Translations under genes and position numbers: made by a program
Shown: positions 500-34,545 of the stretch, piece by piece
How the letters are laid out: each line of letters opens with the position of its first letter
Position numbering within the stretch: position 1 is the stretch's first letter
The notes under the pieces: model-generated
Told to the model about the DNA's origin: nothing
What the model saw: the letters and a program-made list of their open reading frames with translations, nothing else
Databases searched by the model: none
Origin: an uncultured Candidatus Saccharibacteria bacterium
GTDB taxonomy: Bacteria; Patescibacteriota; Minisyncoccia; Phycocordibacterales; CAZPGN01
Length of the DNA stretch: 59,845 nt
Assembly (NCBI GenBank): GCA_964586635.1
Contig: CAZPGN010000001.1
Span: 11,087 to 70,931, forward strand
Reading direction: 5' to 3'

Positions 500-536
500 T
501 AACAAAAACAGTCATCTTGCATGACTGTTTTTGTTA
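500..536. terminator. Bidirectional intrinsic terminator
   Basis: Perfect 16-bp inverted repeat TAACAAAAACAGTCAT-cttgc-ATGACTGTTTTTGTTA between convergent genes, with A/T tracts on both arms. Confidence 0.8.
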
Positions 537-653
537 TACCAGTATTTGGTGCTAGCAGGTAAAATCTGTGCAAATGTCGCAAAACAGACATTGTGCGACA
601 CACAATCTCAACAGTTAGAAGTCTAATGTACCATCCCCTACTCTCCCACTAAT

Positions 654-830
654 TTATGCGATCGAGGCTACCAGACCCGATATCGCGTTGTATATCGCCG
701 CTATAAAGCCGCTAACCCAATTCACCAAGCCACCAGGCGTTACTCCAAGCCAAATTAAAAACGCCACAACTATGACAAGTAGCACAAGCGTTCTCACAAA
801 CCCACCTTTTTGAGTCTGTTGTTGTATCAT
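654..830 (-). CDS. 58-aa small membrane protein with a prepilin-like N-terminus (below the ORF-track cutoff)
   Basis: Manual translation MIQQQTQKGGFVRTLVLLVIVVAFLIWLGVTPGGLVNWVSGFIAAIYNAISGLVASIA*; ATG 830, TAA 654-656; K-G-G-F followed by a ~18-aa hydrophobic run. Confidence 0.7.
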   Translation of the reverse strand: MIQQQTQKGGFVRTLVLLVIVVAFLIWLGVTPGGLVNWVSGFIAAIYNAISGLVASIA

Positions 831-853
831 CGTTTAATTTTAACAGATATTTA

Positions 854-2161
854 TTATCCTGGCAAGTATTCTATTGGGTCGAGGTAGGCATTCAGGGCCG
901 CCCGAGGGATCGTGTAGGTGCCACATCCAGGAGTACGACTACGAAGCTGTCCAATTTGAACGGCGGCGCTTGCATATACGGTGAAGTGCAGATGGGGTCC
1001 CGTAGAGTAACCTGTATTTCCACTATACCCAATAAGCTGACCACGAGCGACCTTTGTGCCAGCAGACACACTGATTAGCGATAGGTGCGCATAGAGCGTC
1101 GTGAGACCATTATCATGCTCGACAAGCGCCCACTTGCCATACGATGAACCGCGGCATGTTAAATCCGTATCCCCAGTGCCGAGAACGGTTCCGCTTGCGG
1201 CGGCGATGACTGAAGTGCCGATACTTGCGCGCAGATCAATTCCGTTGTGTCCTTGTCCATTGTAGACGCCCCTGTTCGCCGCGGCGAACTTCGTATTACC
1301 AAACTCTTGAGTAATAACGGGGTTTGGAACGGGCCATGACAGTACCCCTTTCCCTGTCGCCGGAATAGTAGCGGGGTCGAGTGTAAACTTAAGTTCCGAT
1401 TCCAATTGGAATAGCTCATCCTCAAATGCTCGTTTCTTTGCTAAATGCTCGGCCAATAATTGCTGATATTCCGCCTCAAGGCTCTTTGTTTCAGCAAGAA
1501 GAGAGCGTTTATGTTCTCGTGCGATATCGGCAAGTCGTTTTTTATCACCAAGCTCGTCACGGAGTTCGACAAGCGAACGCTTCTCACTGCTCCTCAAAAT
1601 TCGATCGCTCTCAAGACCCTGCTTTGAACGCGAAATGTCCGCAAGACTTCCGTGCAATCGATCCTGGAGTTGTTCAAGCGCAGAAACGCTATTCCAGATG
1701 CTTGCCCATGTATGGCGAGACAGCAATATCTCAAGCGAGGTAGTGTCATTTTCGTTATTCATTTCACGAATTGCCGCGCCGATATGCTTGCGAGCTCGGC
1801 GGATTGCTGACTCGTGCTCGCCGATATCTACATCAATTCGACTTATTGAGAGATCTGCGCGCTCTATTTTCGTACGAGTTAGGTCAATATCCTTCGATAT
1901 TTTTTTTCGGGTTATGTCAATTTCTTTGATCGTGTTGGTTATGCTTTGTTTTTCTTTGTTTACATCGCCGATCTGCGAATCAAGTCTTGCGATTTCGCGT
2001 TCAAGTTCCCCAAGAGCCTCGTTTTTTGAGGCTATGCTGTCCCTTAATTCATCGATCCGATTTTTTGCGCTGGCAAGCGGAGCATACGCAACGGACATAA
2101 CAATTAGAGTTATGATAATGCCGGCGCATAATCCACTTTGTCTAGAATAACTTCTCGGCAT
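854..2161 (-). CDS. M23 family peptidoglycan endopeptidase with N-terminal membrane/signal segment and long coiled coil
   Basis: HNGID (HxxxD) and PHLHF (HxH) zinc motifs; heptad-rich middle; start moved to ATG 2161 because the track's extension lies inside gltX. Confidence 0.88.
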   Translation of the reverse strand: MPRSYSRQSGLCAGIIITLIVMSVAYAPLASAKNRIDELRDSIASKNEALGELEREIARLDSQIGDVNKEKQSITNTIKEIDITRKKISKDIDLTRTKIERADLSISRIDVDIGEHESAIRRARKHIGAAIREMNNENDTTSLEILLSRHTWASIWNSVSALEQLQDRLHGSLADISRSKQGLESDRILRSSEKRSLVELRDELGDKKRLADIAREHKRSLLAETKSLEAEYQQLLAEHLAKKRAFEDELFQLESELKFTLDPATIPATGKGVLSWPVPNPVITQEFGNTKFAAANRGVYNGQGHNGIDLRASIGTSVIAAASGTVLGTGDTDLTCRGSSYGKWALVEHDNGLTTLYAHLSLISVSAGTKVARGQLIGYSGNTGYSTGPHLHFTVYASAAVQIGQLRSRTPGCGTYTIPRAALNAYLDPIEYLPG

Positions 2162-33100: not shown

Positions 33101-33268
33101 AGTAAATTTCTTACCCGTATAATCATCGATTGGAGAGAACTCCTTGAATGTCTCCTGGACCCCCTCCTTCAGAAGCCATGCATATGACTTCTGTTGCATC
33201 TCTATTAGATTCGGAAACTCGGCAAGAGGCGCCTTATATTTCGAGAAATGCTTCTGCTGTGTTGTCAT
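30110..33268 (-). CDS. rpoB: RNA polymerase beta (compact, 1052 aa)
   Basis: HYGRVCPIQTPEG, GSNMQKQ, GDKLAGRHGNKG, GQRFGEME. Confidence 0.98.
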   Translation of the reverse strand: MTTQQKHFSKYKAPLAEFPNLIEMQQKSYAWLLKEGVQETFKEFSPIDDYTGKKFTLEFVNLELKEPKFNEHYAKANKLSLDGQLKATIRLTNKILGESKEQEIFLADFPMMTPHGTFVVNGNERIVVPQLARSFGVFFTTNEVKGKLLFGAKIIPVRGVWVEFETEADGAIYVRIDRRRKFSVASLLRVLADIEGKGDSEIFDAFDSLGERIASIKHSFEKDSARTVDESYLEIYKKIRDNDLANASNAREFITGILGKERYDLSLVGRYRFNDRFSLDMGENEMARRTMSFNDLVLIVKHMISLNNTPDAKEDDIDHLGVRRVRGVGELLQLKIRLGLTQMKRYIQDRMSTVDTDITLPTQLISPRPLQARLKEFFTTNQLSQFMGQENIIAELEHLRRLSALGPGGLTRERAGFEVRDVHTSHYGRVCPIQTPEGPNIGLILHLAAYARLNEFGVIETPYRKVVDGRITDEIAYLNALEEENAVIAHAGVRYGDDGILLDTEVEARVKTKPEFVSRDRIQYIDVATNQAYSLAACMIPFLEHDDATRAAMGSNMQKQATPCIVPEAPVVATGIESAAAKYSGRLIYSGIDGEISKVDARQIEVSGKGKTESYSLVNFSRTNQFTAFHQRPVVSIGQKVKKGDLLADASTSEHGQVALGQNALVAFMSWGGANYEDAIILSERLVKKSKFTSIHIEEFSVNVRDTKLGPEITTHDIPNVGESKLKDLDEDGIIRIGAEVHPNDILVGKITPKGETELTPEERLLRSIFGEKSRDVKDTSLRMEHGKKGRVVGIKVFSRDRGDRLESGIIKKVYVEVAQVRNISVGDKLAGRHGNKGIISRILPEEDMPYLADGTPIDVILTPLGVPSRMNLGQILEMHLGLAAHTLGYQAIVPSFMGATATEIHSELLRAGYPRSGKVPLYDGRTGDKFAQDIAIGYMYILKLHHMVEDKIHMRSIGPYSLITQQPLGGKAQGGGQRFGEMEVWALEGYGASHTLREVLTIKSDDIRGRAAAFDAIVKNSELPEPNLPESFNVLVSELKGLALDINLIYE

Positions 33269-33438
33269 AAATATTTGTATTGAGGGCCAAAAAACAAAAA
33301 TGCCACCTATATCTCTACAGGTGTTTATTGCGCTTGGTTTTTATGAGCCGGTCGGCATTCGAACAAGCGTTTATCGAATAGATATTCCTCCTTTGGCGGC
33401 ACTTGGTTTAGCACCTAATGGCCGTATATGCAAGTGTA
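33269..33438 (-). promoter_or_regulatory. ~170-nt rpoB 5' leader with a GNRA-capped hairpin and U-tract (candidate attenuator)
   Basis: CACCTGTA-GAGA-TATAGGTG (33304-33323) followed by GCATTTTTGTTTTTT; AATGCC/GGCATT outer pairing; two AAACCAAGYGC repeats. Confidence 0.5.
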
Positions 33439-33444
33439 TAAGCG

Positions 33445-33473
33445 AGTATATAGATGGTCGAATATCCTGTCAA
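33445..33473 (-). promoter_or_regulatory. Near-consensus sigma70 promoter of rpoBC
   Basis: TTGACA-17 bp-TATACT. Confidence 0.8.
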
Positions 33474-33518
33474 GCAGTTATCCACCGATTACTATACCAC
33501 ATCCTGCTGGGCTGAATG

Positions 33519-33547
33519 AAAAAAGAAACGGCCCACATTTATGGGCC
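33519..33547 (-). terminator. Intrinsic terminator of the small unit upstream of rpoB
   Basis: GGCCCAT-aaat-GTGGGCC followed by GTTTCTTTTTT. Confidence 0.8.
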
Positions 33548-33577
33548 TTGCAACAGGTTCATCAGGTCGTTCCTAAA

Positions 33578-33781
33578 CTAAATCCAAAATCCGCCGTCGT
33601 ACCGGAGGAGATGCTCCTCTTCCGTCGTGAACGGTGGTTTCGCGATAACCACCGTCTTGCCATCCTGCGCCGCCCTATATGCGGCGTAGAATGTCCACAT
33701 ACGTGGATCCACTCGCAGGATGTTTCCATCTCTGCGAGAAATCCTGCTTCTGGAACGAACTGATGCTGATGCCTTCATCAT
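33578..33781 (-). CDS. 67-aa hypothetical protein in its own transcription unit (alternatively a structured RNA)
   Basis: Promoter, GAGGAG SD, ATGATG start and terminator all present; five stem-loops inside the reading frame. Confidence 0.55.
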   Translation of the reverse strand: MMKASASVRSRSRISRRDGNILRVDPRMWTFYAAYRAAQDGKTVVIAKPPFTTEEEHLLRYDGGFWI

Positions 33782-33816
33782 TCTCCTCTACTTACTCTAC
33801 TTCCAATTCACCTTCA

Positions 33817-33845
33817 ATCCTATCAGTGTATTGATAAAATGTCAA
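33817..33845 (-). promoter_or_regulatory. Sigma70 promoter of the small unit
   Basis: TTGACA-17 bp-(TGa)TAGGAT. Confidence 0.75.
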
Positions 33846-33855
33846 TCCAGCCGCA

Positions 33856-34545
33856 TTATTCGCCACGTGCGGGATATTTCCGATGCTCTGACTGCCACGC
33901 TTCTATCTTGCGATGATGTCCTCCGCGCAAGACTTCCGGCACAGAATACTTTTTCTTCTTATAAATAATCGTTTCAGGCCTTGTGTAGACCTTGGCGCTC
34001 GCAACCCTACCCTCTTCGATAGATTCAGATTTGCCAAGGACTCCCGGGATACGGCGAGTGATTGCATCGATAATGACAAGCGCAGGCAATTCTCCTCCTG
34101 TCAAAACATACTCCCCAACAGAATACTCTTCCGCCTTTAACGCCTCTGTAACCCTCGCGTCAATCCCTTCATAACGACCAGCTACAAGAATGATGTCACG
34201 CTTGCTCGTAGCCCACTCTTCTGCAACCGTATTATCAAAGGTTTTACCCTGCGCCGAAAGCACTACGATACGAACGCCGCGCCGCTTTCCTCTGATAGCG
34301 TCTACTGTCCTTAATAGCGGTTCCGCCATAAGAATCATCCCAGGGCCACCGCCATACGGACGGTCATCAACGGTTCTGTGCGCATCGCTCGTAAAATCAC
34401 GCGGATTGGTCGCGCGCACGGAAATCAAACCCTGCTCTTGCGCGCGTCCGATAATGGAAGCTCCTAAATACGAACTAAGGCTCTCCGGAAATAGAGTTAC
34501 GACATCGAAACGCATCTGTTTTTTCCTTTGAAGAGCCATGCTCAA
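33856..34545 (-). CDS. trmD: tRNA (guanine37-N1)-methyltransferase
   Basis: VDDRPYGGGPGM, GRYEGID.R, GEYVLTGGE, R.IPGVLG, VPEVLRGGHH; true start may be 34539 or 34515. Confidence 0.96.
   Translation of the reverse strand: MSMALQRKKQMRFDVVTLFPESLSSYLGASIIGRAQEQGLISVRATNPRDFTSDAHRTVDDRPYGGGPGMILMAEPLLRTVDAIRGKRRGVRIVVLSAQGKTFDNTVAEEWATSKRDIILVAGRYEGIDARVTEALKAEEYSVGEYVLTGGELPALVIIDAITRRIPGVLGKSESIEEGRVASAKVYTRPETIIYKKKKYSVPEVLRGGHHRKIEAWQSEHRKYPARGE

Follow-up and report, generated by a model that had tools for sequence, protein, structure and literature searches.

Unit U1, a short predicted transcription unit between trmD and rpoB, is best read as a fast-evolving, lineage-specific orphan gene for a small protein, in which the structure of the mRNA is itself selected. 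We give this reading a rough probability of 0.55. An initial annotation of the locus had offered a non-coding RNA, a dual-function RNA or a small basic protein, and the data favor the third of these, here as an orphan gene subject to selection on its mRNA structure. U1 belongs to no known RNA or protein family.

The window, the whole stretch of DNA that was analyzed (59,845 nucleotides), corresponds to C1:11087-70931 of the genome. This genome is of the ~600-kb Parcubacteria type, contains 599,820 bp in 12 contigs and is rated 100% complete. The genes on the minus strand are arranged in the order uvrA, a short uvrC, rpsP, the gene for a KhpA-type KH protein, trmD, U1, the rpoB promoter, rpoB and rpoC. 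The promoter, C-free purine-rich leader, 67-codon ORF and terminator of U1 were all found where the initial annotation had placed them, on the minus strand. The features of U1 and its surroundings, in window coordinates, are as follows.

34545..33856, minus strand: trmD, the upstream neighbor of U1
33845..33519, minus strand: the whole of U1, promoter through terminator
33840..33845, minus strand: -35 hexamer TTGACA, 10 nt past the trmD stop codon
33817..33825, minus strand: extended -10 element, TGATAGGAT, in which TG precedes the second hexamer TAGGAT
33782..33816, minus strand: purine-rich, C-free leader bearing GAGGAG, mostly unpaired in the predicted fold; putative extent
33578..33781, minus strand: orphan ORF of 67 codons, with a second ATG at 33778
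33752..33765, minus strand: 5' strand of the predicted closing helix, CAUCAG.UCGUUCC, in codons 6-10; pair probabilities 0.97-1.0
33712..33738, minus strand: predicted hairpin of 7 bp, an A bulge and 4 bp with a GAAA loop, extended by GGAUUU/GGAUCC
33625..33704, minus strand: three-way junction with hairpins 33686-33668 and 33655-33631 in the predicted fold
33605..33619, minus strand: hairpin GAGGAG-CAU-CUCCUC in the predicted fold, with SD-like and anti-SD-like arms
33560..33573, minus strand: 3' strand of the predicted closing helix, GGAACGA.CUGAUG, starting 4 nt past the stop codon
33549..33560, minus strand: motif GAACCTGTTGCA, identical in the unit of relative G088 and common to units U2 and U3
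33519..33547, minus strand: predicted intrinsic terminator, GGCCCAT-AAAT-GTGGGCC followed by a T tract
33445..33473, minus strand: rpoB's own promoter, TTGACA-17-TATACT, outside U1 and kept in relatives

The promoter-like site of U1 (33845..33817) is composed of TTGACA, a 17-nt spacer and TG-n-TAGGAT. It agrees with the consensus at 10 of 12 positions and has the additional TG, and is predicted to be a sigma-70-type extended -10 promoter (TTGACA, 16-18 nt, TG-n-TAnnnT). The same architecture is found at rpoB, U2, U5 and the csp gene. The leader extends for about 35 nt beyond the -10 box, and its GAGGAG is located 1 nt and 4 nt ahead of the two ATGs, the short spacing that had been noted before. 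At the other end, a 7-bp stem (33547..33530) with 5 G-C pairs is followed by GTTTCTTTTT; this G+C-rich hairpin and U tract form a predicted intrinsic (Rho-independent) terminator. Both the promoter and the terminator are consensus matches. Since there is no terminator between trmD and U1, the U1 terminator probably also ends the rpsP-KH-trmD transcript.

The RNA of U1 is far more stable than expected by chance. Its folding z-score is -6.48 over 294 nt and -4.91 over 261 nt without the terminator, and none of 200 dinucleotide shuffles was as stable. For comparison, 161 random 200-nt windows of the genome have a mean z of -0.21 (sd 1.31), and 1.2% of them are below -4. Codon-order shuffles gave a z of -5.1. 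A comparison with codon-preserving shuffles, which the initial annotation had proposed, also places the folding energy beyond chance: z is -4.0 when synonymous codons are permuted and -4.2 when they are resampled by genomic codon usage. Because the fold outdoes these protein-preserving shuffles, synonymous positions appear to be used for pairing.

Both the MFE and the centroid folds include hairpins 33738-33712, 33686-33668, 33655-33631 (9-10 bp) and 33619-33605. These are four of the five consecutive hairpins described in the initial annotation. The fifth, 33707-33694, can form, but the MFE fold spends its bases on the three-way junction instead, and it stands only as an alternative to that junction. 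A predicted helix that had been missed closes the whole structure. It is composed of 13 bp between codons 6-10 and the 3'UTR, with a pair probability of ~1.0. Ranked by openness, the start region falls in the top 12% of windows in the U1 RNA, and the start codon is not sequestered by the long-range helix. The second ATG can become part of a local hairpin of 5 bp (p = 0.8).

The codon usage of the ORF is gene-like. With codon log-odds derived from a training set of 357 long open frames, the ORF frame scores 0.081 per codon, the other forward frames -0.133 and 0.047, and all three reverse frames are negative. Genes in this genome score 0.131 +/- 0.078 and off-frames -0.118 +/- 0.071. Among shadow ORFs of 55-90 codons, the fairer null, 8% score as high (n=1140), and 9% of the dinucleotide shuffles of U1 hold an ORF this long. 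The coding statistics for the U1 ORF alone are therefore modest. The product is basic and hydrophilic, contains no membrane helix and has an Arg/Ser-rich N-terminus.

The homologue search suggested by the initial annotation covered sets of 5.8 billion and 1.8 billion proteins and found no real homologue in either. In the larger set, a k-mer search returned only the U1 product itself, which is present in identical form in other assemblies; a 40-aa entry is an internal-start call of the same ORF. In the smaller, a full HMMER search of 1.84 billion representatives returned the product and two repetitive proteins, whose matches look spurious. Pfam-A and NCBIfam contain no family matching the 67-aa product at E <= 1, the best PHROGs match is not significant (E = 0.12), and nothing matching U1 was found in viral contigs and phage records. 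Models of the product are poor, both from AlphaFold2 in single-sequence mode (pLDDT 48) and in the ESM Atlas (0.43). No DNA homologue of U1 was found in 60 relatives. A search of metagenomes through RpoB gave relatives with at most 61% identity, a value from which records of this genome itself were possibly excluded.

The usual neighbor of trmD is the gene for ribosomal protein L19. In this genome L19 (PF01245) is encoded at C8:21480-21752, away from trmD. With L19 on contig 8 and the U1 ORF lacking any Pfam match, we rejected the idea that the ORF is a degenerate L19 gene or operon remnant.

Three further units in the genome bear on whether U1 is translated. The element ACCTGTTGCA followed by a terminator is found at two further places, U2 and U3, and U5 came from a scan of all promoter-to-terminator units.

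U2 (G000:C2, L094 1540-1880, minus strand): flanked by an MFS-type transporter gene and a convergent gene for a helicase/nuclease
U3 (G000:C4, L095 1450-1780, plus strand): flanked by leuS and a convergent gene for a YchF-like GTPase
U5 (G000:C2:62300-62615, L130 1001-1316, plus strand): a unit with its own strong promoter and terminator

U2 has a TTGACA-17-TG-n-TATCAT promoter, a hydrophobic ORF of 67 codons whose stop codon sits within CATCGTAAACCTGTTGCA, and a 17-bp terminator. Its GGAGG is paired with a 3' CCUCC, and z is -9.3 to -11.5. U3 contains a promoter-like site and an orphan ORF (62-75 codons), followed by CATCGTACCTGTTGCA and a hairpin; its RNA is not unusually structured (z = -1.2). 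U5 has a 60-codon orphan ORF with GAGGAG at the start, a z of -7.3 and a weaker version of the motif, CATCGTCCTGCCCA, ahead of the terminator; it was not found in 200 relatives from the order. The U2 and U3 ORFs are unrelated to that of U1, no similarity was detected between the U1 and U5 peptides, and the products of U1, U2, U3 and U5 have no family matches. The codon scores are 0.127 for U2, 0.102 for U3 and 0.081 for U5, and the chance of an ORF that long is 4.5% for U2, 7.7% for U3 and 21% for the unit in G088. It was the motif or the structure, and not the ORF, that led to each of these units, yet all of them hold codon-biased ORFs that fill the unit. This is the strongest argument that the class, U1 included, is translated.

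Scanning k-mers ahead of 303 terminator-like sites indicated that the shared motif is not a general terminator feature, and its complement does not recur in the genome. Across 400 genomes of the order the 12-mer is 3-fold more frequent than the control, mostly in coding E-P-V-A repeats without terminators. The pre-terminator 12-mer is thus not spread through the order. Matches with one mismatch in G088 revealed no second unit there.

Heavy structure is shared more widely. The mRNA of the cold-shock protein (G000:C12:182-532, plus strand) has a z of -9.8, and the other highly structured promoter-to-terminator units of the genome are mostly protein genes. Because the csp mRNA is equally structured, heavy structure seems to be a habit of short stand-alone genes here and not the mark of a non-coding RNA. 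As with cspA-type mRNAs, the predicted U1 transcript is short and stands alone, is framed by a strong promoter and terminator of its own, and has a folding energy far below that of shuffles. It differs from them in that its protein has no family, it has no known temperature-switch structure, and the closing helix joins early codons to the 3'UTR. A further structured unit, at G000:C9:17587-17894 (plus strand), contains a lysine-rich ORF of 77 codons and has a z of -5.5.

The region between trmD and rpoB is variable in the order. In 17 of 29 loci from relatives, trmD is found in the 1.5 kb that precede rpoB, and in most of these a gap of 170-530 nt contains the rpoB promoter and leader only. In the nearest relative, G088 (67% identical over the RpoB N-terminus), the gap spans 1.2 kb. 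It contains an 81-codon ORF with its own terminator, then a U1-like unit composed of TTGACA-17-TATCTT, an unrelated 50-codon ORF, the 12-mer identical to that of U1, and a terminator. Scored with G088's own codon table, this ORF reaches 0.185 in its frame, against -0.16 and -0.21 for the out-of-frame readings. The RNA has a z of -2.5, and the hairpins of U1 are not recognizably conserved in it. An alignment of the two units showed the 12-mer and a 10-mer in common and nothing more. No protein similarity was detected between the U1 ORF and its syntenic counterpart, and tblastn of the U1 peptide against the G088 gap gave noise only. G305 belongs to G088's family and has no unit between trmD and rpoB.

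Because the site is variably occupied, the link between U1 and rpoB is attributable to positional chance or an insertion hot spot, and the site seems prone to lineage-specific fillers. The placement directly before the rpoBC promoter pointed out in the initial annotation is correct in this genome but is not a conserved association in the order relatives. The analysis therefore reveals no new rpoBC regulator.

Translation of U1 would not begin by Shine-Dalgarno (SD) pairing. The 3' tail of the 16S rRNA after helix 45 is GGAACAAUUCAAUUG, which lacks CCUCC (G000:C3, L097 about 500-560, minus strand). The tail in G088, GGAAUUUUUCAAUG, also lacks it (L132 149-200). SD-like 4-mers precede 5.4% of first starts, compared to 7.9% of internal ATGs, so starts are not enriched for them. 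In addition, the GAGGAG of U1 is 1 or 4 nt from the ATGs, compared to the 5-9 nt expected of an SD-led mRNA. Given the 16S tail and the lack of SD enrichment, GAGGAG cannot act as an SD, contrary to its earlier assignment. Loss of the anti-SD has already been published for a subgroup of Parcubacteria (Tsurumaki et al., 2022, PMC9297842). This genome resembles that subgroup in its 16S tail without CCUCC and its lack of SD enrichment, and G088 shares the tail. That study covers the rRNA trait and not the units described here, which paradoxically bear GAGGAG or GGAGG by their putative starts. U1, U2, U5 and the unit of G088 all have such a sequence near the putative start, and elsewhere in each RNA lies a partner of the CCUCC type. 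The two pair in a hairpin in U1 and G088, and in a 5'-3' helix in U2.

Several observations count against a small protein as the product of U1. No homologue exists in any collection searched. Twelve nucleotides of the 3'UTR are identical in G088 and the peptide there is dissimilar. The Arg/Ser-rich N-terminus is encoded by stem strands, as would be expected of a chance frame through a structured RNA. The structure models are poor, the coding statistics lie in modest tails, and the second ATG can be drawn into a hairpin. On the other side, the open start region and the absence of any Rfam family at E <= 10 count for the protein.

A rival reading is a novel structured non-coding RNA. Such an RNA would be ~240-290 nt long, its function residing in the closing helix and the four or five hairpins, with an incidental ORF and a conserved 3' element, GAACCUGUUGCA, as a functional part of the RNA. 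We consider it unlikely. The structure is strong and outdoes synonymous shuffles, and the encoded protein is an orphan without a confident fold. This genome and G088 have only the RNA-level 12-mer and the architecture in common, and not the peptide. With no anti-SD, GAGGAG lends translation no support, and the SD-like and anti-SD-like arms pair together inside the RNA. However, gene-like codon usage is found in exactly the ORF frame, in U1 as in four sister units, and each of these units is filled by its ORF. As expected of an mRNA, a long unstructured 5' leader runs up to the ATG. The hairpins are not recognizably conserved in G088, whose unit folds with a z of -2.5, and no Rfam family matches.

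The Rfam comparison that had been proposed earlier yielded no known RNA family at gathering or permissive thresholds. At the gathering threshold, Rfam 15 identified two tRNAs in the window and nothing at U1. A permissive scan of 33200-34000 (E <= 10) gave a lone chance match to a vertebrate lncRNA model, at 13 bits against a gathering threshold of 80. 6S RNA was rejected: RF00013 has no match in the genome, and the U1 fold is a multi-branch junction and not a rod with a central bubble. RNase P RNA and tmRNA are both located elsewhere (C9:7128-7486 and C2:76005-76384).

A divergent SRP RNA was briefly a candidate for U1, because no SRP RNA was detected in the genome. RF00169 has no match even at E <= 10, and RF01854 has none. 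It was ruled out since Ffh and FtsY are missing from the genome and the order as well. The GAAA hairpin is also unlike SRP helix 8, since its helix is almost perfect and lacks the symmetric and asymmetric loops. Neither the SRP54 GTPase (PF00448) nor the SRP M domain (PF02978) was found in this genome, rated 100% complete. RF00169 was found in 0 of 61 genomes of the order, our own included, and RF01854 in 0 of 40; PF00448 matched only P-loop fragments in 31 genomes. With both protein and RNA models, the signal recognition particle was thus not detected in this genome or its order relatives.

It is quite unlikely that U1, U2 and U5, together with the G088 unit and possibly U3, make up a new class of self-contained structured RNAs of Parcubacteria without an anti-SD, acting at the RNA level. 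The proposed marks of such a class are a strong promoter, internal pairings of the GGAGG/CCUCC type, a pre-terminator CAUCGUA-ACCUGUUGCA and a terminator. Its members would be regulatory, protein-binding or dual-function, and their ORFs secondary or freely replaceable.

A dual-function RNA, which would encode a small protein and also act as RNA, with the 3' motif or the CUCCUC/GAGGAG arms as possible means, appears improbable. Codon bias and structure beyond the needs of the protein are both present, and the 3' motif is common to units with unrelated ORFs. No target or partner was found, however, and the complement of the motif does not recur in the genome; the csp mRNA is equally over-structured, so excess structure alone implies no second function. 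Like SgrS/SgrT, RNAIII/hld and SR1/SR1P, which are structured RNAs of 200-500 nt with a small ORF, U1 combines both elements. Unlike in these systems, its ORF fills most of the RNA, and no base-pairing target, chaperone context or conservation of either part was seen.

There is a similarly small chance that U1 is a decaying or neutral insertion, such as what remains of a mobile cassette or of a structured element, with no present function. The gap between trmD and rpoB is variably filled, being empty in most relatives, occupied by a different cassette in G088 and without a unit in G305, and the ORF is an orphan. But the near-consensus promoter, the intact terminator and ORF, and the extreme folding energy argue for maintenance, and a 12-mer shared without change by different families points to constraint.

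A type I toxin-like module, in which the mRNA of a toxic peptide is held inert by a 5'-3' helix as in hok or AapA1, is very improbable: U1 shares with hok/Sok and AapA1/IsoA1 a small ORF, a self-contained unit, a very stable and compact mRNA and a 5' region beside the start that pairs with the 3' end, and U2 pairs its GGAGG with a 3' CCUCC and encodes a hydrophobic peptide, but U1 encodes a hydrophilic, basic peptide that lacks a membrane helix, the start codon is free of the long-range helix and not occluded, no antisense gene was found in that a consensus scan (which weak promoters could escape) showed no opposite-strand promoter inside U1, and neither a significant PHROG match nor an NCBIfam match exists.

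For the orphan small-protein gene, we infer translation, the role of the structure and the role of the motif as follows. U1 would be monocistronic, with a product of 66-67 aa. Its own extended -10 promoter would drive it, and polymerases reading through from trmD would probably transcribe it too. Its strong intrinsic terminator would insulate rpoBC from the rpsP-trmD transcript. The open, unstructured, C-free leader would present the AUG, and because the organism has no anti-SD, start selection would rely on this open leader. Downstream, the mRNA would form a compact multi-hairpin body closed by the 13-bp helix between codons 6-10 and the region past the stop. Since this helix spans codons 6-10 and the post-stop 3'UTR, every translating ribosome would have to open the whole fold, which could re-form behind it. 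The folded body may protect the short mRNA from decay, limit ribosome loading, or both. The 3' motif may be an RNA-level signal shared by a small group of units and recognized by a putative reader.

If this reading of U1 as an orphan small-protein gene is correct, it adds one more orphan small gene. It would also be a clean example of mRNA structure selected atop coding, in a bacterium that initiates without SD/anti-SD pairing. U1 would then be a compact test object for start choice and for the stabilization of short mRNAs in ultra-small bacteria. The 3' motif on unrelated small ORFs, together with SD-like motifs that the genome cannot read, could point to an undescribed RNA-level signal.

Several other features were observed at the loci compared here. 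In two other families (L018 and L029), a structured stretch of 250-300 nt with a small ORF and a terminator follows trmD. The ORFs have 71-75 and 58 codons, and the stretches are unrelated to U1 in sequence. In G088 (L012), a perfect 24-bp inverted repeat, CAGCCCGGTACTCTCATTTTGAAG ... CTTCAAAATGAGAGTACCGGGCTG, lies between the terminator of the unit and the rpoB promoter, with a loop of ~65 nt and a local z of about -7.5. Ten Ns at the terminator of the G088 unit are probably a scaffold gap.

The 16S rRNA gene of this genome (G000:C3) contains an insertion of ~530 nt near its 3' end (L097 about 620-1140, minus strand). It is located between ...CCTTGTAC and ...CCGCCCGTCA, in the region of E. 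coli positions ~1390-1400. Because of this insertion, the Rfam glocal alignment of the 16S rRNA stops early, at L097:1086.

The rpoB leaders of the order share a motif of their own. GATTGAGT(T/C/A/G) follows the TATACT -10 box of rpoB at a distance of ~20-30 nt and is conserved in many families, including the leaders in L012, L018, L019, L021, L024, L029, L030, L031, L032, L037 and L128. At the equivalent position, about 33420-33440 of the window on the minus strand, this genome carries CACTTGCATATACGGCC.
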